This document shows, in pieces, positions 3,551 through 30,107 of a stretch of DNA of 30,660 nucleotides. Each line of letters begins with the position of its first letter. The stretch's first letter is position 1. The notes under the pieces are model-generated. The model did no database searches. It saw nothing but the letters and a program-made list of their open reading frames with translations, and was not told the DNA's origin. The stretch lies in the IMG/VR virus record IMGVR_UViG_2585427784_000002. One strand, written 5' to 3'. Made by a program: the position numbers and the translations under genes. This DNA comes from a virus. Lineage: Duplodnaviria > Heunggongvirae > Uroviricota > Caudoviricetes.

Positions 3551-3576
3551 AATTGTTTGTCCTTCTTTGTTACCTC

Positions 3577-12542: not shown

Positions 12543-12653
12543 CAAACATCTCCCCAAGTCTACTAAAGTCTTTCAAAACCCCTTATAATCCACGTATTAA
12601 AGCCCCGTTCGTCTTTTGACGTCTACTAAAGTCCCTCAAAATCTACGGTCAGA

Positions 12654-12704: not shown

Positions 12705-12705
12705 A

Positions 12706-14551: not shown

Positions 14552-14982
14552 TGGAAAAGAAAAACCGCCCATTACAGGCGGCTAATTCAGATATTCGCGT
14601 ATCTGACATTACGCCCCTTACAAAATCCCTTCAAGCACCAAAGCGCACACCGAAAAAGCATCGTGCCCGAGTCTATATGCTGCGTACTGGTATAGAGGGA
14701 TGGACAGAAAATGACATTCTTCGCTACTGCCGTCTGTCTTCTGGTCGTAACTATGCAACAGAGTTAGAACGCCAGCTTGGAATCACTCTGGAGCGTATCG
14801 ACGAAAAGAATCCTGATGGTATCGGAACACACCTTCGCTACCGTTTCTCCTGCCGTGGTGATGTTCTGAAAGTGATCACTCATGTTAACTATCTTGCGAG
14901 CATAAATGATCACAACGGACTTTCTCAGCAGGAAATTACCGACATTCTGAAACTCTACCCGGACGCGTTTAACGCCGCCTAA
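14551..14982 (+). CDS. Hypothetical protein (143 aa)
   Basis: ORF translationally coupled to alpA-like gene; no family recognised. Confidence 0.55.
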   Translation: MEKKNRPLQAANSDIRVSDITPLTKSLQAPKRTPKKHRARVYMLRTGIEGWTENDILRYCRLSSGRNYATELERQLGITLERIDEKNPDGIGTHLRYRFSCRGDVLKVITHVNYLASINDHNGLSQQEITDILKLYPDAFNAA

Positions 14983-14994
14983 CGGAGACTGAAA

Positions 14995-15828
14995 ATGAAC
15001 ATCGAAAAAAGCAGATTAATTTCTGAGGCCGCCCCTCATCTGAACGCCTCTCTGGGCACAATTAACGGTAATGAATTTGCCGCAATTGTCCCGGTTATTC
15101 CTGGTCACATCGGTGGGCGTGAAACCAATATTGTTAGCGCAAAAGCGTTACACAAAGCGTTGGGCGTGGGAAAAGACTTCTCTACATGGATCACTGATCG
15201 CATCTCTGAATATGACTTCACCATTGGGCACGATTACTCAGTCCATAAAACAATTTCCCCAAATTTGGGGAAAAGCCCGAATGGCGCGGCTTACAGCAAG
15301 ATTAAGCAGTCTGGCAGACCCGGCAAAGACTATCTGTTAAGTGTCGGAATGGCGAAAGAACTGGCAATGATCGAACGCAATGATCAGGGTCGCGCTATCC
15401 GTCGTTATTTCATCCAGTGCGAGGAAGAATTACAGCGTAGCGTGCCTGAAATCGCCGCCCGCTATCGTCGCCAGCTAAAAGCCCGTATCAGTGCCGCAAA
15501 CAACTTTAAGCCAATGTGCGATGCGCTGAATATGGCCCGTGCCGAGCAGGGGAAAACGACGCAGCAACACCACTACACAAATGAGAGCAATATGATTTCT
15601 CGTATCGTTCTTGGAGGGCTAACTGCTAAGCAGTGGGCGCGGATAAATGGCTATTCTGGCGAACCTCGCGACCATATGAACGCAGAACAGCTTGAGCACC
15701 TCTCATATCTCGAAAGCACCAATATCACGTTAATTGATATGGGCATGGAATATGAGCAGCGCAAAGGAGAACTCACCCGCCTGTCGCAACGCTGGCTCGC
15801 CAAGCGTCTGGAGGCGGTCCATGTTTAA
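14995..15828 (+). CDS. Phage antirepressor/regulatory protein, Rha/AntA/Bro-N-like N-terminal domain (277 aa)
   Basis: N-terminal segment ...NIVSAKALHKALGVGKDFSTWITDRISEYDFTIGHDYSV... matches the phage regulatory (Rha/antirepressor) domain pattern. Confidence 0.6.
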   Translation: MNIEKSRLISEAAPHLNASLGTINGNEFAAIVPVIPGHIGGRETNIVSAKALHKALGVGKDFSTWITDRISEYDFTIGHDYSVHKTISPNLGKSPNGAAYSKIKQSGRPGKDYLLSVGMAKELAMIERNDQGRAIRRYFIQCEEELQRSVPEIAARYRRQLKARISAANNFKPMCDALNMARAEQGKTTQQHHYTNESNMISRIVLGGLTAKQWARINGYSGEPRDHMNAEQLEHLSYLESTNITLIDMGMEYEQRKGELTRLSQRWLAKRLEAVHV

Positions 15829-16003
15829 GCCGACAGGAACACCACAACCTCAAAAACGCTACAAAGATGCCCACGGAGCACTCGTTACTGTCGAAAGCGT
15901 GTCTCACAACCGAGTGACGTTTTATCGCGACGGGTATCAATCGCCATGCGTACAACCGCTGGCGCGCTTCATGAAGGAGTTCGCGGAGGTTAACAAATGC
16001 TAA
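15821..16003 (+). CDS. Small phage protein, DUF4222-like (60 aa)
   Basis: GGAGG RBS 6 nt upstream of ATG at 15821; start overlaps the previous stop (translational coupling). Family assignment tentative. Confidence 0.55.
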   Translation: MFKPTGTPQPQKRYKDAHGALVTVESVSHNRVTFYRDGYQSPCVQPLARFMKEFAEVNKC

Positions 16004-17064
16004 CCGTCCAGAAGAAGATATTTTCACTGGCTGGTATGTCGCCAAAATCCAGCAATATGACAGCAAAGTCTGGCATTAATACAGCAGATACAAGCAAAGT
16101 TTATCATTTTCTGGTGGTAGGAGCGGATGCCTTAACTATGTCAGAAATTACGGTCGATGGTGTTAGCGTTGAGAAGGTCGGCGGCTGCGCCAGAGAATTT
16201 CTGGTCGTAGATGGCTTTCTCTGCTCGCGTAGTGACTCCACAAAAACCTTCGTCCACACGCGCGACGTTAACGAAATGAGCGCGATGTATTGTGCATCTG
16301 GTGCTTCCAATAGTGAGTTTTCGGAGTCCATAAAAAAGAGCTTGCCGTTATGCGGCAACACGGTTTATGGTTATAAGGCACCTCATAAAACGGGTGCCGG
16401 GATTGGCGTCCTGGTAAATCGAATGGCGACATATGACGCGCCGAGCGTCTTTTTTTATGTCGTAGGTCTGACTCACCAATTTTTTGGGCGTTGGTGTATA
16501 ATCCAGCGCCTTTGTCAATCAATGGTGGCTCAGGCAGGGGCTTCTTCGGAAGCGCCGGTATCCATTCGAGCCGGTTACGCCAACCCTGTCTGGGCTACCA
16601 CCAGCGAAATTGGCGTTTCCGGTGGTAGCGTTACATGCTATCGAATGGAGGCTGCCACATGCTGGCTACTACCCCTACCCAAAAACCGCAATTTATCTGG
16701 ATTATCGCCGCAGTTCGCCGCGATTGCCCGACAATTACCGCCAAAATTCATCATATTGCTGCCGAGTCTGAACGCGATGCTCGCCGTTCTCTGGTGCGCG
16801 ATCACGTCTGCTTTTTTGCTGGTCGTATCCGCATGGAGGTGGCACATGATTAAAACCTACGATGTGCATATGGATCCCCTCGAACGCACAAGCCAGATCA
16901 TCACACTGACAGAAGTGATTAACGACATTCTGGTGAGCAACTCTCCCTCACGAGACGAAAGACTGAAGGCGTTACTCGCGATATTGGATCTCGCCGTTCG
17001 TGACGTTCATTTCCTGCTGGAAGGTGGCGAAATGCCAGGAAAAACGGGGGCAACCAATGAATAA
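15997..17064 (+). CDS. Hypothetical protein; the frame is open for 355 codons but the 3' extent is uncertain because two shorter RBS-preceded genes are nested in or appended to it
   Basis: GGAGG RBS 8 nt upstream of ATG at 15997 and overlap with previous stop support the start; no stop until 17064. Confidence 0.4.
16659..16853 (+). CDS. Host cell-division inhibitor Icd-like protein (64 aa)
   Basis: [64 protein letters not shown] resembles the Icd-like small proteins of P4-type elements (conserved FFAGRI region); GGAGG RBS 7 nt upstream; lies in a different frame inside the 355-codon ORF. Confidence 0.55.
   Translation: MLATTPTQKPQFIWIIAAVRRDCPTITAKIHHIAAESERDARRSLVRDHVCFFAGRIRMEVAHD
16846..17064 (+). 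CDS. Hypothetical small protein (72 aa)
   Basis: GGAGGTGG RBS upstream of ATG at 16846; ATGATTAA overlap with the Icd-like stop; same frame as the tail of the 355-codon ORF. Confidence 0.5.
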   Translation: MIKTYDVHMDPLERTSQIITLTEVINDILVSNSPSRDERLKALLAILDLAVRDVHFLLEGGEMPGKTGATNE

Positions 17065-17251
17065 CTCAATTAATGCCCCTCGACTTACGTCCGCACTTCA
17101 ATTAATCGAGCAAGCAGCGGCTGTCCTGGTTGCTGTCAGTCTTTCGGCTGAAGAAATGGACGCTGCTGATGTCGTGGATGCGATTAAAGCGTGCTCATCT
17201 TTGGTTAACGATGCCCGTGCAGAGCTGGTAATTCTTGGGGGTGAAAAATGA
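17057..17251 (+). CDS. Hypothetical small protein (64 aa)
   Basis: Start overlaps preceding stop (ATGAATAA); part of the coupled operon. Confidence 0.5.
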   Translation: MNNSINAPRLTSALQLIEQAAAVLVAVSLSAEEMDAADVVDAIKACSSLVNDARAELVILGGEK

Positions 17252-17511
17252 ATATCAACTTAATTTATCGTCATCCGTGTGAGCTGGAAATTGAATCATT
17301 GCTGAGTCGTGAAGAGCTATATCCAGACACATTCACTCTTGCAGATCGCACGACTGAACGGCTTACCAGAGCGCGCACAGGTCTGGTTCATGTGATGAAT
17401 GAGATTCTTCCATCGGTGGGAGGGGAACAGGCGACAGTAATCAATAGCTGGCTACAAAAAGTTACCTCCCTGATAGATATCAGTTTAATCGATGCGGAGA
17501 GTGCGAAATGA
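17248..17511 (+). CDS. Hypothetical small protein (87 aa)
   Basis: ATGA overlap with both neighbours; part of the coupled operon. Confidence 0.55.
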   Translation: MNINLIYRHPCELEIESLLSREELYPDTFTLADRTTERLTRARTGLVHVMNEILPSVGGEQATVINSWLQKVTSLIDISLIDAESAK

Positions 17512-17729
17512 CCAACATCCAGCTCATTGAAGCGCAATGTCGCATCGAACAGGTTCAGACTGTTTTAGGGTTCTGGCTTGAAGGGGCCAGCCCCAGCAAC
17601 AGAGACAAGTTAATGATTGGCGCGGTTATGTCACTGCTCAATGGCGTACCAGAAGCTATTCAGGAAGCAGACGAATTGTTGGGCAAATATGAGTTACAGA
17701 ATCATTCAGGCGAGGCGAAACATGAATAA
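17508..17729 (+). CDS. Hypothetical small protein (73 aa)
   Basis: ATGA overlap with upstream gene; part of the coupled operon. Confidence 0.55.
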   Translation: MTNIQLIEAQCRIEQVQTVLGFWLEGASPSNRDKLMIGAVMSLLNGVPEAIQEADELLGKYELQNHSGEAKHE

Positions 17730-18324
17730 TTTCTTAACCTTCCATGCAGAAGCAACGCCTGACGGCGTAAACATCATGCACCGCAGCAACGATGGCATGA
17801 CAGAACGCGTTGAGACCGTTTCATATATTGATGCCGTAAATCGTCTGGATGCCGGGGATTATGACGATAAACCAGATGAAGGTATGTCAATACATCTCGC
17901 TATTGCCGATGGCGGCAACCAGGGATATTTCGATTACACATCACAGCATAACGTCATTATGTGGAGATGGCTGATCGCAACAGTATTCATGCTGGAAATG
18001 AGAGAGGAAAACGGCACTGTCAGCATCATTGATGATACTGGCAATCCTTCCGAAGTGGCTGTTTATTCCAACGGCATCGTCGCCATGCCGCTGTATCCAG
18101 TAGCAGAGCGCCTCGCTATGGCAAACAACATTGAGGGCGCGATGATAGAACGTTTTGGCATCGAGTCTGGCACAGAACGCGCCATCATTTTCTACAGAGC
18201 CATGATGGATGTGGAACAAGGAGCACTGACTCCATTTGGTCGTGAAACGCTTGCTGAACTTCACAACAGCTTTATAGCTGAACTGAATGAAAACGGCATG
18301 CCAGCGGAACCAGTGACGCACTGA
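17722..18324 (+). CDS. Hypothetical protein (200 aa; start taken at the internal Met of the 235-codon ORF)
   Basis: GAGG RBS upstream of ATG 17722, which overlaps the upstream stop; the alternative start at 17617 would overlap the previous gene by 113 bp. Confidence 0.55.
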   Translation: MNNFLTFHAEATPDGVNIMHRSNDGMTERVETVSYIDAVNRLDAGDYDDKPDEGMSIHLAIADGGNQGYFDYTSQHNVIMWRWLIATVFMLEMREENGTVSIIDDTGNPSEVAVYSNGIVAMPLYPVAERLAMANNIEGAMIERFGIESGTERAIIFYRAMMDVEQGALTPFGRETLAELHNSFIAELNENGMPAEPVTH

Positions 18325-18334
18325 GGATGGATCC

Positions 18335-18676
18335 ATGATTACTAAAAATTTCCGACTGAATGCGCTGGCAAATAAGTATGCGTCGGCACTGTATAACCAC
18401 ATTACCTCCACCAGCGGCGGGGACTATTTCATGGTTGATGCGGACGGCGAGGCCGTCCGTGTGGAAATCGTCAATGGAGTAAAAGGCGTTCGCAGCCTGA
18501 TCGATAGCTACACACTGGCAGCCATGAAAGTGTTCTACCCGCAGTGGGAAACCGTGGGGATAGAGCTTCTTGATCGTTGCGTCACTAAGGACGGATTGAC
18601 TGACGTCGGGCGTGAGATATGGCAAAGCATGGTTAATGACATGGGCGCAACTGTAGCGGGAGGTTCTCATGCGTGA
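18335..18676 (+). CDS. Hypothetical protein (113 aa)
   Basis: ORF in the coupled operon just upstream of the primase; no family recognised. Confidence 0.55.
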   Translation: MITKNFRLNALANKYASALYNHITSTSGGDYFMVDADGEAVRVEIVNGVKGVRSLIDSYTLAAMKVFYPQWETVGIELLDRCVTKDGLTDVGREIWQSMVNDMGATVAGGSHA

Positions 18677-19040
18677 AAATGCAGAAATGGCGCTTAGCTC
18701 CGCAATCGGAGAGCAGGTGGCAAAGATTGCTGGCGCTGTGTGGATTCATAACCTTCATTCTACTGGTGAAGAGAAAATGGCAATTCAGACGCCAGAGGGA
18801 CGCACCATTACTACATCTCTGAAGGTGTCAGATGTTTGTGATCTGATTTGCGCATTCATGTACCCAGCAATGAGGACTGTCCACGGCGATAAGTGGAAAC
18901 TTGCGACAACCGCTGAATTTGATATGTGGCTAAACAATGATGGCATGCTGACTGATTACGGAATAACCAAGTGGCAGATGCTGGTTAGCCATATCGCAAA
19001 CGCTATAGACCACGTGGGGTACGGTGATGCGAAACATTGA
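18669..19040 (+). CDS. Hypothetical protein (123 aa)
   Basis: Overlaps neighbours at both ends; part of the coupled operon. Confidence 0.55.
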   Translation: MRENAEMALSSAIGEQVAKIAGAVWIHNLHSTGEEKMAIQTPEGRTITTSLKVSDVCDLICAFMYPAMRTVHGDKWKLATTAEFDMWLNNDGMLTDYGITKWQMLVSHIANAIDHVGYGDAKH

Positions 19041-21783
19041 TCTTATCCGTCAGGTTATCAGTGCGTCTGAAAACAACTGGCCTCATGTGCTGGGCTGCCT
19101 GAACATAAATGTCCCTGACTCTCCGCGCCGTCATGCTCCCTGCCCTGCATGTGGGGGCAAAGATCGATTCCGGTTCGATGACAACGGGCGCGGTAGCTTC
19201 ATCTGTAATCAGTGCGGCGCTGGTGATGGACTGGATTTAATTAAACGCGTAAATAACTGCGACACAACAGAGGCGGCGCTTCTTGCCGCTGATGTTCTGG
19301 GTATTGATTACCGGACAACGGAAACACCAGAAGCCACCAGCCAGAAACGGGAACAACTGGAAACCGAGCGCCAGCGACGCGAACAGGAGCGCCTGAAAGG
19401 GGCAGAGAAGGACGAACAACAAAGACGGGATACGTTTTCCCGTCAGTTTGATGACATGCGCAGAAAGGCTGTAAACGGCAAATCTGATTATCTGGTTGCG
19501 AAAGGGGTAGGTGATTTTACATTCCCCGTGTTGCCCGATGGATCTCTGTTGCTGGCGCTGGTGGATAAATCCGGCGCAGTAACAGCAGCACAGACTATTA
19601 CCTCACATGGTGAAAAAAGACTCCTGACAGGTTCAGCAAAGCGAGGGGCATATCACGCCATAAACGCACCAGAAACAACACAGAGCATCTTAATCGCAGA
19701 AGGGCTGGCAACGGCATTATCTGTCCATTTAATTCGTCCAGAGGCGCTGACAGTGGCGGCGATTGATGCCGGGAACCTGTTATATGTCGCCCAGGTACTG
19801 CGGGATAAATTTCCTTCAGCACAAATCATCATTGCTGCGGATAACGACCACAGCGAAGGAAGACAAAACACGGGGAGAATAGCAGCAGAAAAAGCAGCTT
19901 TATCTGTTTCTGGATGGGTGGCATTACCCCCGACAGATCACAAAGCAGACTGGAATGATTACCACCAAAAACACGGCATTAAATGCGCCACAGAAGCGTT
20001 CAATAAGTCAATGTACCAACCACAGGGTAATGGCGTGAAACAGGAGCCACAGACCATTGAGGGAAGCGATTTTAAGGTTATGGATACCGACCCACTGAAA
20101 CCAAGAATAGAAAGCCGCGAGGATGGTATTTATTGGGTATCTCCGAGAGCTGACAGCCAGAGTGGAGAAATCATCAATAACGAAAGCTGGTTATGTTCTC
20201 CATTAAGCGTTATCGGTACTGGCAGAGACGATAAAGACCAGTATCTCATTCTTCGCTGGCTGTCGTTTGGTTCTGAAACGCCGACAACCGCTGCCATTCC
20301 ACTGGCTGATATTGGTGAACGTGAAGGATGGCGCACACTTAAAGCTGGTGGGGTAAATGTCACGACCAAAAGCAGCCTCAGAGCAATACTGGCAGACTGG
20401 CTACAACGCAGTGGCTCTCGTGAATTGTGGCGTGTTGCTCATGCCACTGGCTGGCAATGCGGAGCGTACATCATGCCTGATGGGGAAATCATCGGAACAC
20501 CTGAAAATCCTGTGCTGTTCAGCGGGAGAAGCTCAGCCGCAGCCGGATATACCGTCTCAGGGAGCGCGAAAAGCTGGCGTGATAACGTGGCGCGTCTGGC
20601 CTTTGGTAACTATTCAATGATGACCGGGATCGGCGCAGCACTGGCAGCGCCATTGATTGGGCTGGTGGGCGCTGACGGGTTCGGCATTCATTTCTATGAG
20701 CAGTCGAGCGCAGGTAAGACCACCACGGCAAACGTGGCGAGCAGCTTATACGGCAACCCTGATTTACTGCGGCTGACGTGGTACGGAACCGCGCTGGGGC
20801 TGGCAAATGAAGCTGCCGCCCACAATGACGGACTAATGCCGCTTGATGAAGTTGGTCAGGGCGCTGATCCTGTCAGTGTTTCACAGTCTGCCTATGCGTT
20901 ATTTAACGGTGTAGGGAAACTGCAAGGCGCTAAAGATGGTGGAAACCGGGATCTAAAACGCTGGCGTACAGTGGCAATCAGCACCGGAGAAATGGATTTA
21001 GAAACATTTATCGCTACTTCCGGGCGAAAAACCAAAGCCGGGCAACTGGTGCGACTGCTGAATATTCCGTTGAGTAAAGCAGTACGCTTTCACGATTACC
21101 AGAACGGAAAACAGCACGCAGACGCACTGAAAGACGCTTACCAGCATCACCACGGCGCAGCCGGGCGTGAGTGGATTAAATGGCTGGCAGACCACCAGCA
21201 ACAGGCAATTAAAACTGTTCGTGACTGCGAAAGCAGATGGAGAAGTCTGATCCCATCCGATTATGGTGAGCAGGTTCACCGTGTAGCCGCGCGATTTGCC
21301 ATTCTGGAGGCCGCATTGCTGTTAGGCGAGGTTGTAACAGGCTGGGATGCTCAGACATGCCGTGATGCGATACAGCACAGCTATAACGCATGGTTGCGCG
21401 AGTTCGGCACAGGTAACAAAGAACATCAGCAGATTATTGAACAAACGGAGGCATTTCTTAATGCCTATGGGCTTAGCCGTTTTGCACCATTTCCATACAG
21501 CCCGGCAGATTTGCCCATCAAAGATTTAGCCGGATACCGTCAGCGTGGAGAACATGACGAAAGCCCAATGATTTTCTACACATTCCCGGCCACATTTGAA
21601 AAGGAGATCGCATGTGGTTTCAACGCAAAACAGTTTGCTGAAGTGTTGAAAAAAGCCGGGATGCTAACCCCACCAAACAGCGGTCGTGGATACCAAAGAA
21701 AATCACCACGTATTCAGGGACGACAAATAAACGTTTATGTACTCAATTACCAGCCAGGAGATTACAACTCATCTGAAGAATGA
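19024..21783 (+). CDS. Primase-helicase (P4 alpha-like): N-terminal Cys4 zinc-binding primase region, TOPRIM-like segment, C-terminal P-loop NTPase (919 aa)
   Basis: CPACGGKDRFRFDDNGRGSFICNQCG zinc-finger; TOPRIM-like IIAEGLATAL and DxD-type acidic motifs (AADNDH); Walker A YEQSSAGKTTTAN; ori-like iterons immediately downstream. Confidence 0.85.
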   Translation: MMRNIDLIRQVISASENNWPHVLGCLNINVPDSPRRHAPCPACGGKDRFRFDDNGRGSFICNQCGAGDGLDLIKRVNNCDTTEAALLAADVLGIDYRTTETPEATSQKREQLETERQRREQERLKGAEKDEQQRRDTFSRQFDDMRRKAVNGKSDYLVAKGVGDFTFPVLPDGSLLLALVDKSGAVTAAQTITSHGEKRLLTGSAKRGAYHAINAPETTQSILIAEGLATALSVHLIRPEALTVAAIDAGNLLYVAQVLRDKFPSAQIIIAADNDHSEGRQNTGRIAAEKAALSVSGWVALPPTDHKADWNDYHQKHGIKCATEAFNKSMYQPQGNGVKQEPQTIEGSDFKVMDTDPLKPRIESREDGIYWVSPRADSQSGEIINNESWLCSPLSVIGTGRDDKDQYLILRWLSFGSETPTTAAIPLADIGEREGWRTLKAGGVNVTTKSSLRAILADWLQRSGSRELWRVAHATGWQCGAYIMPDGEIIGTPENPVLFSGRSSAAAGYTVSGSAKSWRDNVARLAFGNYSMMTGIGAALAAPLIGLVGADGFGIHFYEQSSAGKTTTANVASSLYGNPDLLRLTWYGTALGLANEAAAHNDGLMPLDEVGQGADPVSVSQSAYALFNGVGKLQGAKDGGNRDLKRWRTVAISTGEMDLETFIATSGRKTKAGQLVRLLNIPLSKAVRFHDYQNGKQHADALKDAYQHHHGAAGREWIKWLADHQQQAIKTVRDCESRWRSLIPSDYGEQVHRVAARFAILEAALLLGEVVTGWDAQTCRDAIQHSYNAWLREFGTGNKEHQQIIEQTEAFLNAYGLSRFAPFPYSPADLPIKDLAGYRQRGEHDESPMIFYTFPATFEKEIACGFNAKQFAEVLKKAGMLTPPNSGRGYQRKSPRIQGRQINVYVLNYQPGDYNSSEE

Positions 21784-21808
21784 GCTTCTTCATGTGCGTA
21801 GAAAAGGC

Positions 21809-21919
21809 GTTGGTTCAGTTGGTTCAGTTGGTTCAATTTGTAAAGAGTATTGTTTTATAAGGATTTTATTCTTTTTATTGAACCAACACTGAACCAACAA
21901 CACGGTATTTTGAACCAAC
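21809..21919. repeat. Iteron cluster / candidate replication origin: 3 tandem GTTGGTTCA, AT-rich spacer, 3 inverted TGAACCAAC
   Basis: Direct copies at 21809-21835, AT-rich 43-bp spacer, inverted copies at 21879-21919; sits directly 3' of the primase gene, as origins do in PICI/P4-type replicons. Confidence 0.75.
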
Positions 21920-22241
21920 ACAATGTGACTGAATTGATGCGCACAACACCTGGCTGGCATCAGAGAGTGTTTTACGAGACTTTCGTAAAATCCTGTGTAC
22001 AAGGGCGTGACGTTTTTGAAAGTGAGCACTACGAAATTTTCGTAGTTCAGAAAACAGCCCCTGAGAAGTTGTTATGCCTGTTCAGCAAATCATCCGCATA
22101 GCTGATCGCGAATCAAATTACCAATGGAGCCAGAAGCAAGGGCAGAACTGAAAAGCGCCTGCCGTGAAGAGTAATGCGACACCATAAATATAGTTTTTAG
22201 AGTCCATAAAAAACCTGTCAAAACCTGACACACAGAACGAT

Positions 22242-22272
22242 GCCACCAGCTACTGAGCGGTGGCATTTTTTT
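22242..22272 (+). terminator. Rho-independent terminator (GCCACC...GGTGGC stem followed by ATTTTTTT)
   Basis: 6-bp GC stem with 11-nt loop followed by a 7-T run at 22266-22272. Confidence 0.65.
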
Positions 22273-22332
22273 GTGCTATCTGTTTCATATTTTGCAATTA
22301 CGATGATGAATATTGCGATTTGTGAAACTATA

Positions 22333-22356
22333 ATAACTGTTGTTTTATACAGTTAT
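22333..22356. promoter_or_regulatory. Palindromic operator-like site ATAACTGT-N8-ACAGTTAT overlapping a TATAAT -10-like hexamer, upstream of a small ORF
   Basis: Perfect 8-bp inverted repeat arms with 8-bp spacer; TATAAT at 22328-22333; AAGGGGG RBS and ATG at 22368 follow. Confidence 0.5.
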
Positions 22357-22367
22357 AAGGGGGCGTT

Positions 22368-22529
22368 ATGGCTATTTCAGTAAAGCCGGTATTGATAAGT
22401 GAGAAGCAAATGGAAGCGATAAAGAAAATTCAGGAAGAGCAGCGTAAAAAATCAGGAATTGGAGTAGCGCCAACTCTGCATGAAATTGCACGAGGGTTAA
22501 TAGATAAGGCGCTGGCAGGCTGTATGTGA
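22368..22529 (+). CDS. Small putative DNA-binding regulator (53 aa; possibly ribbon-helix-helix-like)
   Basis: Strong RBS (AAGGGGG) 7 nt upstream; palindromic operator immediately upstream; short protein MAISVKPVLISEKQMEAIKKIQEEQRKK... Below the ORF-track length cut-off, found by reading. Confidence 0.45.
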   Translation: MAISVKPVLISEKQMEAIKKIQEEQRKKSGIGVAPTLHEIARGLIDKALAGCM

Positions 22530-22545
22530 AAATGGATGGCATCGC

Positions 22546-23007
22546 ATGGAACTAAAATTTATTGATAACCCTGTGCGATTACAGGCCTTTCTTAACGAGC
22601 CTGGCAATACCGAAAATATTGTTGAGCCGGGGCACACGTACTACATCAAGCCTGATGCGGTATATCTCGGTATCTACGAAGGATTGGTGCTGGCTGGCGT
22701 TCATGAAGTGCGTAACTTCTGGCATAGCATTGTTGAATGCCATGCGGTGTACGACCCCGGATTCCGTGGTGAATATGCACTACAAGGGCATCGATTATTC
22801 TGCAAATGGCTTCTCGAAAACTCACCATTCCTTAACAGCATCACCATGGTTCCTGACACAACGAAATACGGACGGGCAATTATCCGTTTGCTTGGCGCTA
22901 CCCGTGTTGGTCACCTTGATGATGCTTATATCAGATGTGGTAAACCCGTCGGCGTAACGCTTTATCAGTTAACTCGGCAACAATATAAGGAATTCAGCGA
23001 ATGTTAA
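22546..23007 (+). CDS. Hypothetical protein (153 aa); by position possibly the podovirus gp14-like gene preceding the ejection-protein genes
   Basis: ORF directly upstream of and overlapping the next gene's start; family not recognised from sequence. Confidence 0.5.
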   Translation: MELKFIDNPVRLQAFLNEPGNTENIVEPGHTYYIKPDAVYLGIYEGLVLAGVHEVRNFWHSIVECHAVYDPGFRGEYALQGHRLFCKWLLENSPFLNSITMVPDTTKYGRAIIRLLGATRVGHLDDAYIRCGKPVGVTLYQLTRQQYKEFSEC

Positions 23008-23678
23008 TTACCCATATAGCTCATAAATATCTCAATCGTGCCGTATACGAAAAAGGCGGTGATGGTGGTGCCTCTAAAGCTCAGGCGAAGGCCCAGCAGC
23101 AGGCAATTGATTTGCAGCGCGAGCAGTGGAATACGGTGATGAATAATCTCAAGCCGTATGCAGAAGTCGGATTGCCTGCTTTACAACAACTACAAGGACT
23201 GATGACTCTGGAAGGGCAGAATAAAGCCGCGAATGATTTCTTTGGTTCTGGTTTATATAAAACACAGGCAGATCAGGCCCGTTATCAGAACCTTGTCTCA
23301 GCAGAAGCTACCGGGGGGCTTGGCACAACAGCTACCAGTAACCAGTTATCTTCCATTGCGCCCATGCTTTATAACAATTGGCTCAGTGGGCAAATGCAAA
23401 ATTATGGAAACCTGCTAAATGTCGGGATGAATGCGGCATCAGGGCAGGCAACAGCAGGGCAAAACTACGCCAATAATACCGGACAACTCTTGCAGGGGCT
23501 TGGCGCTATTCGTGCAGGTCAGGCGCAGCAGCCATCCAGTCTTGCGCGTGGTATTGGTGGGGCGGCATCAGGCGCTTTAGCGGGTGCGCAACTTGGTTCC
23601 GTTGTTCCGGGTATAGGTAATGTCGCCGGGGCTATTGGTGGTGGGCTTATTGGTCTTGTTGGGGGGCTTGGATTCTAA
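23001..23678 (+). CDS. Q/A/G-rich protein with glycine-zipper C-terminus (225 aa); candidate P22 gp7-like ejection (DNA-transfer) protein
   Basis: N-terminal ...YEKGGDGGASKAQAKAQQQAIDLQREQW..., extensive Gln/Ala/Gly low complexity, C-terminal GxxxG-rich hydrophobic tail (GIGGAASGALAGAQLGSVVPGIGNVAGAIGGGLIGLVGGLGF); size and position match gp7 of P22-like phages (from memory). Confidence 0.45.
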   Translation: MLITHIAHKYLNRAVYEKGGDGGASKAQAKAQQQAIDLQREQWNTVMNNLKPYAEVGLPALQQLQGLMTLEGQNKAANDFFGSGLYKTQADQARYQNLVSAEATGGLGTTATSNQLSSIAPMLYNNWLSGQMQNYGNLLNVGMNAASGQATAGQNYANNTGQLLQGLGAIRAGQAQQPSSLARGIGGAASGALAGAQLGSVVPGIGNVAGAIGGGLIGLVGGLGF

Positions 23679-25099
23679 TGGCGACATGGCAACTTGGCGG
23701 GCTGCCTAGCATGGCACCGCAAAATGATAATGCTCCTCGTTCTTCCGTTCCTCAGCCTGTGCAGTATCAGCAGCAGCCAAACGTAGGTTTAATGGCGCTA
23801 CAGGGGCTAAGAGGCGTTGCTGAGATTAATCAGCAGGCACGTCAACAACAGCGTAAAGCAGAGTTTCAGAAAGCATATGCCGGGGCTTTTGAGTCTGGAG
23901 ACAGAAACAAAATGCGCAGTCTTATTTCTGAGTATCCAGAAGAATTTGAAAGCGTTCAGAAAGGGATGGGCTTTATTGATGACGACCAGAGAAATTCTAT
24001 TGGTCATCTTGCGACTAGTGCTCAAATCGCATCTTCGCTCGGAACTGGGGCATTTGGAAAATTCATAGCAGATAACGAAGATGAAATGCGTCGCTTGGGA
24101 ATTTCTCCTGAGTCTGTTGCCGAAATGCATGTTAATGATCCACAGGAATTCCAGCGGCTTGCTGGTAGTATGGCACTGTTTTCTCTCGGTCATGAGAAGT
24201 ACTTCGATATCAAAGATCGAATGGAAGGTCGGGATATTGAGCGTGGCAAGTTGGCAGAGACAATCCGCAGCAATCAGGCTGGAGAGGCGCTTCAGGCGAG
24301 AGGGCAGGATATTAGCCGAGCAAATGCGTTAACGTCAGCATATGCACCAACAGCCGCAATGCAGAATTACAATCAGTACGCGCAAATGTTAAAGGCGGAT
24401 CCAGAGGGGGCAGCGGCATTTGCGGCAGCGGCTGGAATTAATACAAACGCCAAAAAATTAATGAGTGTTAGGGAAAACGATGATGGCACTGTCACAAAAT
24501 ACTACACAGACGGAAGTGAAGAGCAGGGAAAACTCACCCAGCCAATATCTGGAGATGGGTTTCGTCCAATAGCTTTGCCAACAGCCCAAAAGATCATGGA
24601 AAAGTCGCCAGAAGGGGCTAAAAAAGCTGCTGGATTTGCATACAGGGTTAGGGATGCTCTTGATTCAATAGATACACTGAGAGACCAGCTTAGCCCACAG
24701 CGAGTGGCGATCATTAATAATGCTTTGGGTAATGGGACGCTGGCTAACTTAACGCTCAGCCCAACAGAGCAGCAATACGTTGTTAATGCTAATGACGCAA
24801 TAATGGCAATACTCCGTCAGGAAACAGGGGCAGCTATCGCACCTGCTGAAATGTCAAAATATTATCAAATGTATTTCCCTCAGCCTGGCGACTCCACAAA
24901 AACCATTGATACCAAGCGCCGGAAGATGGAAAACCAGTTCAATTCGCTGAAAGCTGCTTCTGGTCGAGCTTATGATGCTTTGCGGGTTATTTCAGCAGTT
25001 GACAGAGGAACTTCTTCTTCGTCGCAGACATTGCCGCAATCTGAGCAGGTATCACAGCCAGCAGCCAGCAGTAACTTTTCTTCACTATGGGGTGATTAA
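23678..25099 (+). CDS. Q/A-rich protein (473 aa); candidate P22 gp20-like ejection (DNA-transfer) protein
   Basis: Start overlaps previous stop (TAATG); low-complexity Gln/Ala-rich composition; size close to P22 gp20 (about 471 aa, from memory). Confidence 0.45.
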   Translation: MATWQLGGLPSMAPQNDNAPRSSVPQPVQYQQQPNVGLMALQGLRGVAEINQQARQQQRKAEFQKAYAGAFESGDRNKMRSLISEYPEEFESVQKGMGFIDDDQRNSIGHLATSAQIASSLGTGAFGKFIADNEDEMRRLGISPESVAEMHVNDPQEFQRLAGSMALFSLGHEKYFDIKDRMEGRDIERGKLAETIRSNQAGEALQARGQDISRANALTSAYAPTAAMQNYNQYAQMLKADPEGAAAFAAAAGINTNAKKLMSVRENDDGTVTKYYTDGSEEQGKLTQPISGDGFRPIALPTAQKIMEKSPEGAKKAAGFAYRVRDALDSIDTLRDQLSPQRVAIINNALGNGTLANLTLSPTEQQYVVNANDAIMAILRQETGAAIAPAEMSKYYQMYFPQPGDSTKTIDTKRRKMENQFNSLKAASGRAYDALRVISAVDRGTSSSSQTLPQSEQVSQPAASSNFSSLWGD

Positions 25100-27204
25100 T
25101 GGCTAAAGCATGGAAAGATGTTATCGCCTCTCCACAGTATCAGGCGTTAGCACCAGAACAAAAAGCGCAGGCTCAGGAGCAATACTTCAATGAAGTCGTG
25201 GCCCCGCAAGCCGGAGAAAGTGTAGAGCAGGCTAAGCAGGCTTTTTATGCTGCCTATCCACTACCATCAACGAATGAAATAGACCGATCCCAATCAGCAA
25301 CTCAAAATATTCAACATACATCATCTGATAATTCTCTTGCGTCAGGGTATGCAAAGTTAGCTACTCAGCAAAGAGAGGGGCTTGAGCGTTCAGCAGAACA
25401 GGGAGCCAGTCTTGGGGCTGCGATGCGCGATGCTATAACAGGCGAAAGCCGAATGACTCCAGAGATGGAGAGACTGCAAAATGTCGCCTCTGCCCCAGAA
25501 TTGAACTCACTAAGCATGGATGCCCTAAAGGCTGGATGGTCTCAACTTTTCGGCTCTGACGCGTCTCAGGAAAAGATTCTTCAGGGAATGGGGGCGACAT
25601 TAAGGCAGGATGAGAAGGGGAATACTATCGTTTCTCTGCCATCAGGTGATTATGCCCTGAACAAGCCGGGTTTATCACCGCAAGACCTGACTTCGTTTCT
25701 TGCTAATGCGTTGGCGTTTACACCAGCGGGCAGGGCTGGAACGGTGCTTGGTGCCATAGGAAAATCAGCAGCTACAGATTTAGCACTACAGGGAGCCACC
25801 AGCCTTGCTGGTGGAGAAGATATTGATCCGTTACAAACGGTAATTTCTGCTGGCATTGGTGGTATTGGTAAGGGGCTGGAAAATACAGCGAGTGCGGTTT
25901 CGAGGGCTGTTCGTGGTGATATGTCGCCTGAAGCAAAGGCTGCTGTCGACTTTGCATCGGAAAGAAATCTGCCGTTAATGACCAGTGACATGCTGAAAGA
26001 TAAAACCTTTATGCAGAGTCAGGCTCAGACATTAGGCGAAAGAGTTCCTTTTTTTGGAACCGGTAAGAATCGGCTGAATCAACAACAAGCACGAGAAAAT
26101 TTAGTCAGAACATTTAGCGATGGTCTGGGTGGCATTTCTGATAAACAGCTTTATGAATCTGCGACTAAAGGGCAACAAAAATTCATTGAGGCAGCAGGAA
26201 AGCGATATAACCGCATAATTGACGCTATGGGGGATACCCCTGTCGATCTCTCAAACACGGTAAAAGCTATCGACAATCAGATTGCCGTGTTAAGCCGCCC
26301 GGGCAAATCTCAGGATAGAGCCGCGGTAAAAGTCTTGCAGCAATTTAAAGACGATATCACCAGCGGACCAAATGACCTGCGTCTGGCGAGGGAAAACAGA
26401 ACCGATCTTCGAAAGCGATTTATGGCGTCATCTGACACTGTTGATAAAGATACGCTCCAGAAAGCCAGCGATATTATCTACAAGGCATATACGGCGGATA
26501 TGAAAAAAGCCGTAGCCAAAAATCTTGGAGCAGACGAAGCCATTAATATGGCAAGGGTTGATCGCTCATGGTCTAAATTCAATGACATGATGGGAAGAAC
26601 GCGCGTTCAAAAGGCAATAGCCAGCGGCAAGGCCACGCCTGAGGATGTAACAAAACTCGTTTTTAGCCAAAGCCCATCAGAACGTTCTCAGCTTTACAGG
26701 CTTCTGGATGACAATGGTAGGCAAAACGCACGAGCAGCCATAGTTCAGAATGCTGTAGATAAGGCGACTGATCCGTCTGGAAATATCAGTGTCGAGAAGT
26801 TTATTAATGCGTTACACCGGAACAGGAAGCAATCAGCAACTTTCTTTAAAGGCGTACATGGAAAGGAACTGGACGGCGTTATTAAATACCTCAACGATAC
26901 AAGACACGCGGCAAAAGCGAACGTTCAAAACTTAAATGGTCAGCAGCTTTATGGATTGTTAGTTGGTGGTGGCATCATAAACGCAGCAGTATTAGCGGGG
27001 ATGCTAAAAACGGCTGCGTTTGTTGTTCCTGCTGCTGGTGCCGTAGGCGGAGCAGCGAAGGCATACGAAAGCCCTGTTATACGAAATGCCTTGTTACGTC
27101 TGGCAAATACGCCAAAAGGTAGCACAGCATATGACAGAGCGATCAGTACGGTCACACAATCGCTCACCAGAGTCGCACAGGCATCACAAAAAGAAGCTCA
27201 ATAA
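25099..27204 (+). CDS. Q/A/G-rich protein (701 aa) with hydrophobic Gly/Ala-rich segment near the C-terminus; candidate P22 gp16-like ejection protein
   Basis: Start overlaps previous stop (TAATG); GGGVTGA-type RBS; composition similar to the two preceding proteins; third member of a 7-20-16-like trio. Confidence 0.45.
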   Translation: MAKAWKDVIASPQYQALAPEQKAQAQEQYFNEVVAPQAGESVEQAKQAFYAAYPLPSTNEIDRSQSATQNIQHTSSDNSLASGYAKLATQQREGLERSAEQGASLGAAMRDAITGESRMTPEMERLQNVASAPELNSLSMDALKAGWSQLFGSDASQEKILQGMGATLRQDEKGNTIVSLPSGDYALNKPGLSPQDLTSFLANALAFTPAGRAGTVLGAIGKSAATDLALQGATSLAGGEDIDPLQTVISAGIGGIGKGLENTASAVSRAVRGDMSPEAKAAVDFASERNLPLMTSDMLKDKTFMQSQAQTLGERVPFFGTGKNRLNQQQARENLVRTFSDGLGGISDKQLYESATKGQQKFIEAAGKRYNRIIDAMGDTPVDLSNTVKAIDNQIAVLSRPGKSQDRAAVKVLQQFKDDITSGPNDLRLARENRTDLRKRFMASSDTVDKDTLQKASDIIYKAYTADMKKAVAKNLGADEAINMARVDRSWSKFNDMMGRTRVQKAIASGKATPEDVTKLVFSQSPSERSQLYRLLDDNGRQNARAAIVQNAVDKATDPSGNISVEKFINALHRNRKQSATFFKGVHGKELDGVIKYLNDTRHAAKANVQNLNGQQLYGLLVGGGIINAAVLAGMLKTAAFVVPAAGAVGGAAKAYESPVIRNALLRLANTPKGSTAYDRAISTVTQSLTRVAQASQKEAQ

Positions 27205-27222
27205 CTGGTTAGCCATGGATGG

Positions 27223-27642
27223 CTAATTTTTGTTCTTTGCTCTCATCCATAGGTAAAGAAGGGAAAGAACAAGACAAAAAACAGAGAATAGATAACCTAC
27301 CTCATATGGTGCGCCAAAAAAATTAGCTATTGATACGGGCAAAAAAGCTGAAGCGATCAAAATTGAAAGGCAAAAAATAAGCCCAGTAATATAGTTTATT
27401 AAATTCTTAAATGAGAAATGTTTTGCTTGATTTACGGTCTTAGCGAATGATCGCTTAACGACGGATAAAAGCAAATAGATGGCGACAGTTGCTAATGCCC
27501 CTTTCCACCAATCTGGATATAGTTTTGCGACAATCAGACCAAGGAAAACCATGATGACAGCCTGAGCATTCACACCAACCCTCCCTTTAGCGTTGTTTAG
27601 AATGGCAATCATCATATATCCAAGACATGGCATTTGGTACAT
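27223..27642 (-). CDS. Small polytopic inner-membrane protein (about 130-139 aa, 3-4 predicted TM helices) in a visibly AT-rich segment; candidate superinfection-exclusion/abortive-infection type protein
   Basis: Hydrophobic stretches (MMIAILNNAKGRVGVNAQAVIMVFLGLIVAKL..., ALATVAIYLLLSVV..., ITGLIFCLSILIASAFLPVSIANFF..., YLFSVFCLVLSLLYLW); convergent with the 701-aa gene, 18 bp between stops; no clear RBS so exact start uncertain. Confidence 0.55.
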   Translation of the reverse strand: MYQMPCLGYMMIAILNNAKGRVGVNAQAVIMVFLGLIVAKLYPDWWKGALATVAIYLLLSVVKRSFAKTVNQAKHFSFKNLINYITGLIFCLSILIASAFLPVSIANFFGAPYEVGYLFSVFCLVLSLLYLWMRAKNKN

Positions 27643-28616
27643 AGCTTGGGTCGGGATTTCAAATCCGCTCCCAGTTGATGGGGCCGTTACAGTACGCGCA
27701 TATCCGCTTTATGTGAAACAGGAAGATTTTTCTGATATCACTGCCACAGCAAAACACCAATTTCGAGACAAGTACGCGCACGAGGGGTATCAGTTGCAAA
27801 AAATTTTGCAACTACGTCCGACCAGTATGCACACGATGGCGGGGGGATACCATAAAACTGTTCTCTACATGAGACAGAGTGGTGGTGATGTGTTGATTAT
27901 CGGCGTATATGCGCACAGGACGCGCTATGACGATGTTTTATGCGGGTACACCAATACATGTATCTGGTGTGATAAATCGCGTTACATGACCTCTCATGTT
28001 GTGCTGGTGGTTATCACGACGTTCTGAATCTGGCCTTTGCCTGGTATTTTGCGACAAGTACGCGCGCGTAGCATCGAAATAATCGGATGGCGTATGCTGC
28101 TGGTAATATGAAGACCGATAGCATTAACCGAAAGGAGAAAGACTTCTCGATAACGGCAAGATCGCGGCAAGGGGGCTGAATTGCGAGGCGAGATTAAGCA
28201 ACTGTCTTGAACGTAAAAATCATGGAGCAACATGCTGGTACGATTCATTCCATTCTTCGTTCTTTCTGAGCATTGCGTTCAGGCTTAGTCAAAATTAGTG
28301 TTGCGAGCGGACCTATTAGTAATTGTTAGTGCGATGCGTCTGTTATGGATTGTTATGCCTGTGGCAGGCCTGATTAATATCCAGTATGACCACCAGCTAT
28401 GAGAGGCCACCTCAGTGGTTCGCAGTTGCAGGTTTGCACTCAGGTTCGCAGGGTTTTGGCTACTTTCACGTGCGAACCTGCAGAATTGCAAAGGACAACT
28501 AAGTCCTCTGGCCAACTCCCGGTTTATGAGCGACACAGTCCGCCTGGCGCATCGTTTTCGTCGAGTGCGCCCATCAGCTTGTCCATGGACTATCCACCAC
28601 TCGATATTAAAGCTAA

Positions 28617-28802
28617 TCATTGGTTGCCAGCCCGCGAATCAAGTTTGTTCTGGATCCAAGCTTCAACCTCCTCAAGCGACCATCTAGCTGATCTACCAAT
28701 TTTAACTGGCTGTGGAAACGTGCCCGTCTTAACCCATGAGTAGATTGCCGTTTTCTTGAAGCCCGTTCTGAGCATGACTTCGCTTAATTTGATAAGGCGC
28801 AT
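28617..28802 (-). CDS. Second AlpA-family regulator (61 aa)
   Basis: MRLIKLSEVMLRTGFKKTAIYSWVKTGTFPQPVKIGRSARWSLEEVEAWI is the AlpA-type HTH pattern; GAGGAG-like RBS upstream on the minus strand. Confidence 0.8.
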   Translation of the reverse strand: MRLIKLSEVMLRTGFKKTAIYSWVKTGTFPQPVKIGRSARWSLEEVEAWIQNKLDSRAGNQ

Positions 28803-29053
28803 AGAGGCTCCTCTGCTTTAGATTAAGCATAGTGACAATCTGGCTTTGTGCGGTATCCAAAAGCGAGGTATCCATGTTGGTATCCACCAAAACGCTGTTT
28901 ACCAAAAAAGTTACCACCGGAACAGGACATTTTGAGCTGTAACTTAACACATAGCATATGGAGTTCACGCATAGACTTCACGCACAACGGCTCCGGCCAG
29001 AGAAGAATCACCCTGGCTGGCAATATAATGCCGATCACCATCAGAGGGGAATC

Positions 29054-29246
29054 CATGACACCACGAGAAATCGAGCTGCTGACCATTGCCAAGCTGGAGC
29101 ATGACGGCTACCAGCTCAGCCCGGCAGAACTGCGGGAATTAAGGCGCCAGCTGGCAGAGGGCCCTGTAATAGCCAGGCGGTACCGCGCAATGATGACCAG
29201 CCCCACATATCGCTGGAGCAAACCAGCGCCGCTCCGTGCGCGGTGA
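29054..29246 (+). CDS. Hypothetical small protein (64 aa; start at the internal Met of the 132-codon ORF)
   Basis: GAGGGG RBS about 6 nt upstream of ATG 29054; upstream part of the longer ORF is compositionally non-protein-like and overlapped by other ORFs. Confidence 0.35.
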
Positions 29247-29320
29247 GCAGCACCTAACCAGCACTAGACAAGCCCTGTGCTGGTGGATGTCCCTCATAAT
29301 TAGCGGTTTTTAAACGGCGT

Positions 29321-29441
29321 GTTGGTTCACGGCCTCTTTTTGTTGGTTCAAAAATGGGGTGTGTTGGTTCACTTTTTGCGAATAATCCTTTTAAAAACAA
29401 TACTCTTTACAAATTGAACCAACTGAACCAACTGAACCAAC
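29321..29441. repeat. Second iteron cluster: 3 spaced GTTGGTTCA, AT-rich spacer, 3 tandem inverted TGAACCAAC
   Basis: Same 9-bp iteron as at 21809-21919; the block from about 29382 to 29432 is the reverse complement of about 21819-21870, including the spacer segment AATTTGTAAAGAGTATT. Confidence 0.75.
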
Positions 29442-29477
29442 ACCTTTTTGCTTATCTATATAGTCTGAGAGGCAGAA

Positions 29478-29765
29478 ATGATAAGAGACAGGAAAGCTGA
29501 AGAGCTGGAGTCAAAAAGGCTATGCCGGAGAGCTGCCACACGATGGGCAGAAGTCATGACGCTGGCAGATGGCAATAAAGAACGTGAACATGCAGCAAAC
29601 AGACGCTCTGAATGTATCCGTAGGGCGGCACGCCCACCAGCAACTACAGACAGATTCGGAGATTTAAGACAGGCAGTTAAGCGGACTCATTCGGCTCTTG
29701 GTATGGATGAGGAAGCGAGAGGGTACTTCAGGCGTTATCGCGATAAAGATTGCCAGAGACAGTAA
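29478..29765 (+). CDS. Small basic protein (95 aa), possibly nucleic-acid binding
   Basis: GAGAGG RBS about 5 nt upstream; Arg-rich sequence (RRAATRW..., RRSECIRRAARPP..., RRYRDKD); located between the second iteron cluster and attR. Confidence 0.5.
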   Translation: MIRDRKAEELESKRLCRRAATRWAEVMTLADGNKEREHAANRRSECIRRAARPPATTDRFGDLRQAVKRTHSALGMDEEARGYFRRYRDKDCQRQ

Positions 29766-30107
29766 TGCTCTCTCTGTTTTGGCAAATTACCCCTCACTTT
29801 GAAGGGATCGGAGCTATAAAAATGGTGTTATCCGGCTTCCTGCATTGCAGGTTTTCAAAAGAATCAATGGGTTAGGTCATCGTGCAAATTTGCACTCTGC
29901 CATCCAACGCAATTTCTCGTTGGCGGAAATATCAGGTATTTACTGAACGAACGGCCTACCCGCCTGTTCAACTACCAGTTGTACATGGCTGCTTTATGTG
30001 CAAATGGTGGTGAGAGAAAATTGTTTGGGGGTACTTTTGGGGGTATCTCCAAAGATGTAATGGGAAAATGTCTTTATATATCAATGTATTTTTATTGTTT
30101 GTTTTGT

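Follow-up and report, generated by a model that had tools for sequence, protein, structure and literature searches.

Two clusters of 9-bp iterons, designated C1 and C2, were found 7.4 kb apart in a stretch of viral DNA of 30,660 bp (IMG/VR record IMGVR_UViG_2585427784_000002, Caudoviricetes), the whole of which is referred to here as the window. They belong to an island that is an EcCIMP1-like Gram-negative phage-inducible chromosomal island (PICI) of Escherichia coli, and C1 lies directly behind the gene of the predicted primase-initiator protein of this island, Pri-Rep. Our results suggested, with a probability of about 60%, that C1 and C2 together make up a single PICI-type origin, bipartite and mirror-symmetric, whose two halves were separated by cargo. 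This estimate covers the whole package, in which Pri-Rep would bind both clusters, C1 would be the main start, C2 would have an auxiliary or pairing role, and the arrays would serve as homology anchors. Judged from its sequence, C2 probably has two roles, as an accessory site of origin-like build to which Rep would bind and as an anchor for recombination.

Mirror-image iteron clusters and the Pri-Rep protein

The iteron GTTGGTTCA, which reads TGAACCAAC on the opposite strand, was present in 12 exact copies in the window, all of them confined to C1 and C2. When one mismatch was allowed, GTTGGTTCA gave 21 matches in the window compared with 7.3 ± 2.6 after shuffling, and none of 100 shuffles reached 21. 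C1 (21809-21919) started 26 bp past the stop codon of Pri-Rep. It consisted of an outer tight triple of GTTGGTTCA at 9-bp spacing (21809-21835, plus strand, with iterons at 21809, 21818, and 21827), a 43-nt spacer (21836-21878), and an inner inverted triple of TGAACCAAC spaced 11 and 21 bp (21879-21919, minus strand, with iterons at 21879, 21890, and 21911). C2 (29321-29441), 7.5 kb away, was the mirror image (reverse complement) of this layout. Its inner triple of GTTGGTTCA was phased by 21 and 21 bp (29321-29371, plus strand, with iterons at 29321, 29342, and 29363) and was followed by a 43-nt spacer (29372-29414) and the tight inverted triple of TGAACCAAC at 9-bp spacing (29415-29441, minus strand, with iterons at 29415, 29424, and 29433). 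The tight triples were thus outermost, and the stretch separating the two clusters (21920-29320) was 7,401 bp long. The AT content was 84% in the C1 spacer, which is a candidate DNA-unwinding element, and 77% in the C2 spacer, its mirror, compared with 52% in the island.

The two clusters also shared the longest inverted repeat of the region, with arms of 55 nt (21802-21856 and 29394-29448) that were 98% complementary. These arms included the tight triples together with 21 nt of non-iteron spacer, ATTTGTAAAGAGTATTGTTTT, which makes up approximately the first 21 nt of the C1 spacer and was kept in C2 and across genera. An earlier note on this DNA had described both loci as three direct iterons, an AT-rich spacer, and three inverted iterons, with the first locus directly 3' of the primase/rep gene, and these descriptions agreed with the present analysis. 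The inverted block of about 50 bp in the note, with its non-iteron spacer, was real, although its coordinates were 10-15 nt off. In the self-alignment that the note had proposed, the arms shared ATTTGTAAAGAGTATTGTTTT, and beyond the arms only the iterons of C1 and C2 were alike (alignment A1).

Conserved elements were found outside both clusters. Approximately 30 bp past C1, the motif CTGGCTGG followed a T-rich run (21950-21957, plus strand). Exact CTGGCTGG was present at the equivalent position in 24 of 59 loci with various iteron types, the background being 0.06 per 330 bp, and in the compact relatives described below it was central, between both origin halves. The T-rich run with CTGGCTGG sat 15-30 bp past the first cluster and was extended to Chi (CTGGCTGGTGG) in some elements. 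DnaG-type primases start at CTG, and the T-rich/CTGGCTGG element could serve for priming or for the binding of a host factor.

On the outer side of C2, the flank ACCTTTTTGCTTATCTATATAG beside the tight triple (29442-29465, plus strand) was kept across genera (alignment A2) and is a possible promoter or operator for the downstream gene. In related elements a flank of the form ACCTTTTTGCTTAT(A/C)TATA came after the tight triple and was followed by a gene start, whatever the gene; in the window this start was 36 bp away and belonged to the PerC-family gene perC. These features, together with the conservation of the C2-perC module in 592 E. coli genomes, would suit a tight triple that acts mainly as an operator and puts the downstream promoter under the control of Pri-Rep, a role that does not exclude others. 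We regard this as very unlikely to be the main role of the triple, because the spaced triple, the AT-rich spacer, and the mirror symmetry with C1 would be left unexplained. A sigma-70 promoter scan of 21600-22600 and 28500-29600 found no consensus promoter, and the operator or promoter idea for the conserved flank therefore stays unsupported.

Pri-Rep (19024-21783, plus strand, 919 aa) comprised, by Pfam, a Zn-ribbon and a Toprim primase fused to a DUF927 initiator helicase resembling Cch and the Rep proteins of Staphylococcus aureus pathogenicity islands (SaPIs). Its N-terminus was 33% identical to the primase domain of P4 alpha (E 1e-41); past the primase domain came DUF927, which had no significant similarity to P4 alpha. 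Matches in the PDB were 8TCH, a 'Pathogenicity island protein' (E 1e-11), and 5DGK, Cch, and SaPIbov1 Rep and Cch both belong to the DUF927 family (PMC7581432). Clustering among relatives showed that the iteron type tracked the C-terminal 170 aa of Pri-Rep, and a natural swap of the Pri-Rep C-terminus in E. coli FDAARGOS_1077 (locus L079) was accompanied by new iterons. The replicase there was accompanied by a separate iteron, CCTGTACCA, which formed two mirrored clusters at a distance of 1 kb, and the old GTTGGTTCA C2 was left as an orphan at L079:10765-10885, ahead of perC. The chimeric replicase region of L079 spanned 1315-3666 and 3697-4910. Its N-terminal Zn-ribbon/Toprim part was close to that of the window (87.8% nucleotide identity over the first ~1 kb), and its C-terminal part was a different domain, DUF5906.

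These features point to a model in which the C-terminal domain of the DUF927 initiator helicase would bind both C1 and C2. C1, with the adjoining T-rich/CTGGCTGG element, would be the main initiation site, and C2 would be an auxiliary Rep-loading or origin-like site that could possibly fire alone. Alternatively, Rep-Rep contacts might bring C2 and C1 together with the cargo looped out, in the way proposed for P4 alpha at ori and crr. C2 would be helpful, yet dispensable.

Compact and split predicted origins among relatives, and probable cargo exchange at their edges

Relatives of the element were examined over a 10-kb flank in two sets. The species set contained 77 loci encoding Pri-Rep relatives, with one genome per species (GTDB), and the viral set contained 61 IMG/VR contig loci with an exact tight triple, which biased it to the GTTGGTTCA iteron type. 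C1 was located 26-60 bp past the Pri-Rep gene in nearly all relatives. Where a second cluster was found, the pair was always mirrored, with the tight triples outermost and the same iteron type in both halves. The two halves were adjacent, at 260-310 bp in total, in 25 species loci and 26 viral loci (compact state). They were split in 10 species loci, by 1.1-9.0 kb, and in the E. coli islands, and the viral set had four single loci with a split of 7.4-10.4 kb and four contigs with the triples in separate loci. Eleven species loci had no second cluster within 10 kb, a number that is an upper bound for the single class because of the length of the flanks. The compact and split states were interspersed on the Pri-Rep tree. 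The compact side-by-side pair, which forms one mirror-symmetric origin, is the ancestral and common state, and the window therefore contains a split origin and not an origin with an extra site. An alignment of C2 from 13 elements of nine genera showed that the iterons and the spacer end TCTTTACAAAT were invariant and that the inter-iteron stretches varied. The view of the earlier note that both loci are origin-like and share one specificity was supported, and a second, separate cluster recurred in relatives. Relatives with a single cluster within 10 kb, which the note had treated as a sign against its proposal, did occur in the 11 species loci.

Three further arrangements were observed among the relatives. 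Two records, L087 (NZ_CP148430.1, E. coli, circular, 12,152 bp) and L088 (CP031370.2, 19,229 bp), were deposited as small non-mobilizable plasmids. They are circular forms of PICIs related to the island of the window and carry both origin halves along with int, antA, pri, and perC, so some 'plasmids' in the databases are excised satellites. In E. coli O111:H8 1056-1 (L085), positions 11934-14459 held a decayed remnant with a homologue of the 139-aa open reading frame (ORF) of the window, alpA_1, C2, and perC beside ykgL, and an antA/alpA block was inverted 12 kb away behind copies of IS1203, which indicates an IS-mediated rearrangement of an island of the window's family. The double origin region was present three times within 6 kb in Yersinia pekkanenii (L033: 8154-8421, 12736-13003, and 13917-14214). 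Two of these copies were apparently identical repeats 4.6 kb apart, and the triple origin may be a tandem duplication or an assembly artefact.

A bipartite origin was also favoured by the presence of the pair in functional elements. In the mobilised island EcCIMP1 both clusters were intact, with 12 exact iterons, 8.4 kb apart, and the 12.15-kb circular E. coli record also carried both. Several points weighed against a bipartite origin. C2 may be dispensable, given the 11 relatives without a second cluster within 10 kb, although the split distances reached 10.4 kb and the partner may therefore be out of range in some of these loci. Orphan GTTGGTTCA second clusters adjoined non-cognate replicases in L079 and L056 and were found in the O111:H8 remnant, so a second cluster can persist without its Rep; besides E. 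coli FDAARGOS_1077, such an orphan was seen in Serratia oryzae. In many compact relatives the second half had a GC-rich spacer and would thus not always be a self-sufficient origin. Rep binding, melting, and initiation at C1 and C2 are, moreover, predictions drawn from DNA and protein sequence, and the breakpoints at conserved sites described below are equally expected from simple homologous recombination between mosaic elements.

The orphan clusters beside non-cognate replicases and in the O111:H8 remnant, together with the single-cluster relatives, would also fit a C2 that is a functionless relic, namely an origin half duplicated or left behind by recombination between related islands. We consider this quite improbable. 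The six iterons of C2 were exact in the window, in EcCIMP1, and in distant genera, while the intervening sequence had diverged, and the orientation was invariably mirrored. All split C2s retained an AT-rich spacer. The double layout recurred with unrelated iteron types, including GTTGTCTCA, GTCGGTTCA, ACGGGTTAY, and others, and in the validated ori of EcCICFT073. Furthermore, all 18 sampled E. coli genomes with C1 had a second matching place too.

Homology between related islands broke at the edges of the clusters. The Lonsdalea britannica elements L012 and L045 shared 93-97% identity as far as the final iteron of C1, and the match returned where the tight triple of C2 began; the stretch between these points was 118 bp in one element and 5.86 kb in the other. 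When the window was compared with the E. coli islands L079, L080, and L081, homology resumed at 29319/29320, at the first iteron of C2, so that the left edge of the inner C2 triple was a mosaic boundary. In a sample spread over the 592 matching E. coli genomes, which kept the C2-perC module, 28 of 45 alignments started at 29319-29341. On the side of C1, partial E. coli matches started at 21963-21969, and homology with the replicase-swapped island resumed at 21966; a boundary of the replicon module was thus located near 21966, just past CTGGCTGG.

The genes between the halves varied among the split elements and the clusters were conserved, as the earlier note had anticipated. The cargo encoded P22-type ejection proteins in Escherichia, tape-measure proteins in Leclercia, Cedecea, Pantoea, and others, and Dit, baseplate-hub, and spike proteins in Serratia; further cargo included Fic, a P4 beta/cII-like defence pair, a PemK toxin, Tlde1, SSB, and ProQ. 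Breakpoints at the cluster edges gave direct comparative support to the idea, also put forward in that note, of the origin as a cargo-exchange site. In the bipartite model, the iteron arrays would act as short homology islands because they must stay constant for recognition by Rep. Related satellites would recombine there, and the interval between the halves would therefore have become a cargo bay, which in the window holds the genes of P22-type ejection proteins and a helper Xis-like gene.

Virion DNA-delivery genes were observed between the clusters of L034, L037, L054, L059, L012, L020, and L026, and at 22546-27204 in the window. The delivery parts were P22 ejection proteins in some cases and tape-measure proteins, of which one had an SLT domain, or Dit, a baseplate hub, and a gpV spike in others, which suggests that satellites of the window's family supply their own genome-delivery components.

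The same breakpoints could reflect a more active process, in which the mirror-image halves form a dedicated cargo bay and the origin is an initiator-driven site of cassette exchange. Rep at the arrays would stall forks or cause breaks at the outermost iterons, or would pair the arrays, leading to targeted recombination, and satellites would repeatedly capture helper late genes and defence systems through the origin. Simple homologous recombination would give the same boundaries. We hold the active mechanism to be unlikely. If there were two origins and they fired inward or outward, the gene dosage of the cargo after induction might also come to differ from that of the backbone.

ALTERNATIVES tested were inversion, a second-island remnant, and a promoter consensus. 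The 55-nt arms, 98% complementary and in inverted orientation, could in principle make the 7.4-kb segment an invertible switch through homologous recombination, and inversion of the segment had been suggested in the earlier note. This suggestion found no support. When the synthetic junction expected from a crossover in the arms was used as the query, none of the 504 matching genomes, among 5,426 complete E. coli genomes, covered at least 80% of the inverted junction. At least 148 complete E. coli genomes carried the segment, all colinear with the window, and the chance that the segment is an invertible switch appears negligible. The candidate explanation that C2 is the origin of a second, inverted, decayed island was rejected, as there was no primase remnant beside C2 and the C2 of compact relatives adjoined C1. 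A special role of the exact Chi site at 29279 was rejected as well. Chi octamers (GCTGGTGG, either strand) numbered 14 in the 17.4-kb island, approximately one per 1.2 kb, and with Chi so common throughout the island the site at 29279 was not specific. The density of Chi in the E. coli chromosome is roughly one per 4.6 kb.

Gene content of the island

The island (12654-30046, ~17.4 kb) was bounded by a 21-nt direct repeat at 12654 and 30026. The candidate left attachment repeat, TGGGGGTACTTATGGGGGTAT (12654-12674, plus strand), was 95% identical to the candidate right attachment repeat (30026-30046, plus strand), and homology to the flank of E. coli rl0044 started again exactly at 30026. The features of Gram-negative PICIs were all found, namely int, alpA, pri, a downstream ori, largely unidirectional genes, a size within 10-20 kb, and att repeats. 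The integrase (12706-13920, plus strand) was a P4-type tyrosine recombinase with the Pfam domains Arm-DNA-bind_3, Phage_int_M, and Phage_integrase. The ORF of the canonical alpA (14348-14551, plus strand), the PICI master regulator in EcCIMP1, was annotated in relatives as a 'helix-turn-helix transcriptional regulator'. An AntA antirepressor was encoded between alpA and a pair of RNA genes (16378-16605, plus strand), which consisted of an isrK-like RNA (16378-16455) and a C4 antisense RNA (16518-16605). The Rfam scores of 67.1 and 79.5 bits, respectively, were both above the gathering thresholds. With this isrK/C4 pair, a PICI carries an RNA immunity module of the P4/P1 type; the pair was nested in an 'ash family' reading frame (15997-17064), and in the relatives L086 and L087 an Icd-like gene came after it. 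The Rfam scan detected no structured RNA near C1 or C2, the C4 and isrK RNAs being the only ones found, and a search for complementarity between the C4 RNA and the non-coding stretch past C1 (22150-22300) gave no match of at least 9 nt.

A terminator-like hairpin with a T-run (22249-22280, plus strand) separated the replication module from the cargo operon (22368-27204, plus strand; Pfam PF11039, PF25688, and PF16928). The operon comprised a small conserved ORF (22368-22529) and genes for a DUF2824/P22 gp14-like protein (22546-23007), a P22 gp7-like protein (23001-23678), a gp20-like protein (23678-25099), and a gp16-like ejection protein (25099-27204); names in RefSeq included 'P22-gp16 family phage DNA ejection protein' and 'injection protein'. 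The leftward cargo genes (27223-28802, minus strand) formed a sub-region that varied among E. coli islands. They included a 139-aa ORF without family matches (27223-27642, minus strand) and a second AlpA/Xis-like gene, the alpA_1 of EcCIMP1 (28617-28802, minus strand), which was reported to resemble the helper Xis and not to be needed for the PICI cycle (PMC11773190). PADLOC found no matches to known defence systems in these leftward genes. The PerC-family regulator gene directly downstream of C2 (29478-29765, plus strand) was assigned from the RefSeq annotation of identical loci, and its homologue EcCIMP1_025 has been described (PMC11773190).

Two other stretches were noted in the island. An identical 14-mer, GAGTCCATAAAAAA, lay within a 29-nt repeat at 16323-16336 and 22199-22212 and may be a shared regulatory site. 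Its first copy was upstream of isrK/C4, and its second copy, immediately ahead of the terminator-like hairpin, was upstream of the cargo operon. A stretch of approximately 90-100 bp at 28195-28297 was 92-95% identical to DNA beside or under IS110-family transposase genes of E. coli. Such matches made up the bulk of the 3,092 genomes matching 21700-29600, as judged from 23 of 40 sampled rows, and the stretch may represent a target or an end of IS110, or else some repeat element that lies in the variable cargo sub-region.

Comparison with known satellites and replicons

The EcCIMP1-like PICI type, the iteron ori of SaPIs and PICIs, and the second cis site of P4 are already known. The literature searched did not describe the origin of this family as a mirrored double unit, the location of the units kilobases apart with cargo between them in many members, or the coincidence of unit edges with mosaic boundaries. 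PICI and SaPI origins are usually described as one iteron unit behind rep, whereas our results indicate that a large family of enterobacterial satellites has a mirror-symmetric double-unit origin. In a substantial minority of its members, including the experimentally studied EcCIMP1, the units were kilobases apart with a variable late-gene/defence region between them. A pair of clusters with the same iteron type can serve as a landmark, readable from sequence, that delimits the cargo region of a satellite, and it predicts the recombination sites of the replicon and cargo modules. It also raises the question of how two origin halves that lie far apart are used by a Rep helicase that loads itself. 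In PICI-based delivery vehicles, omission of the second cluster might impair replication.

The SaPI origin (Ubeda 2007, as summarised in PMC9371898 and PMC7581432) is defined by 6-12 iterons that immediately follow rep. These are divided equally over the two sides of a central AT-rich region, with no fewer than two opposed iterons per side, and Rep is thought to self-load one hexamer per side. The origins of Gram-negative PICIs were drawn with a SaPI-like anatomy (PMC6092414 Fig. 2a). C1 and C2 each displayed this anatomy, with 3 + 3 opposed 9-mers around a 43-nt AT-rich spacer, and C1, but not C2 alone, had the position directly downstream of pri-rep. The relationship of the DUF927 Rep of the window to SaPIbov1 Rep and Cch, and the origin directly downstream of rep, were further likenesses. 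The differences were that the SaPI origin is described there as one unit, without a second mirrored unit, and that the primase of the window is a Toprim domain of the DnaG/P4 alpha type fused to Rep.

Satellite P4 offered a parallel for two separate loci. In the P4 record NC_001609, crr, annotated as a 'cis required region', was located 46 bp 3' of alpha and made up of two direct repeats of 120 bp. Each of these held type-1 repeats in either orientation, among them a tight pair spaced by 9 bp. The repeats of crr were present again in ori, 4.7 kb away, with the tight repeats oppositely oriented. P4 and the window thus both had two separate loci that shared an iteron, one of them directly 3' of the primase-helicase gene, and in both the units were composed of a tight pair or triple, a spacer, and opposed repeats, the tight repeats of ori being inverted relative to crr. 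Since ori and crr share one iteron kilobases apart, the logic of two separated initiator loci is common to P4 and the window.

The earlier note had proposed C2 as a crr-like site. The parallel in architecture held, and it was joined by the homologous primase domain (33%) and the C4/isrK immunity RNA module of the island. These likenesses would favour a C2 that is a strictly required cis site, with replication starting at one cluster and Rep bound at the other. Strict requirement is, however, very improbable in view of the 11 relatives with a single cluster within 10 kb and the orphan second clusters, which swaps of the replicon module leave behind, whereas crr is annotated as required in cis. 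Other differences pointed the same way, as the helicase/origin-binding part of Pri-Rep was DUF927 and unrelated to the alpha type, and C2 was a single mirrored unit instead of two 120-bp direct repeats. The P4 pair, moreover, brackets the alpha operon, and the pair in the window brackets cargo.

Auxiliary arrays are also known from iteron plasmids, as in P1 incA, F incC, and the distant origins of R6K. They provide initiator sites in addition to those of the initiator-proximal origin, and the two arrays could be paired or looped by the initiator. Such arrays are usually direct repeats without an unwinding element of their own and act negatively. P1 incA and F incC are the model for a C2 that is a negative copy-control or Rep-titration locus, which would handcuff C1 or absorb leaky Rep and prevent firing in the chromosome. 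A conserved second array of the same iterons outside the Rep-proximal origin, with 21-bp helical phasing, fits this model, and the orphan arrays that persist in hybrid islands could titrate the Rep of a competitor. We nevertheless judge the model improbable, because the AT-rich spacer and the opposed iterons of C2 would be superfluous in a pure titration site and satellites over-replicate after induction; data on PICI copy control were not found in the literature searched. Unlike the plasmid arrays, C2 had a full origin-like anatomy in mirror orientation.

The two remaining comparisons were with Gram-negative PICIs. In EcCICFT073, the segment that contains pri and ori drives the maintenance of a plasmid (Fillol-Salom et al. 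2018, PMC6092414). The iterons of EcCICFT073 lay directly 3' of pri/rep, in sets flanking an AT-rich region, and in the intergenic region as read here the outer tight iteron pairs were inverted, which gave a compact mirror plan; the order of the island was also alike, with int, alpA, pri, and ori followed by perC and late genes. However, both halves of the EcCICFT073 origin lay in one intergenic region of 290 bp, whereas those of the window were 7.4 kb apart around cargo and C2 had its own AT-rich spacer. The primase of EcCICFT073 was unrelated to the DUF927 protein of the window, and its iteron, TGTCTACC, differed from GTTGGTTCA.

Excision of EcCIMP1 in E. coli MP1 and its transfer by Kapi1, a P22-like helper phage, have been demonstrated (Pick et al. 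2025, PMC11773190); the origin and iterons are unmentioned in that text, with no occurrence of 'ori' or 'iteron'. The two islands differed in the central ejection region, where MP1 encoded a lytic-transglycosylase-domain protein and the window a gp16-like protein. They shared int, alpA, the antirepressor, ash, the primase, DUF2824, DNA-transfer proteins, alpA_1, and PerC, and the island of the window was 98.4% identical to EcCIMP1 over 12495-23838 and 97.3% identical over 27648-29558.

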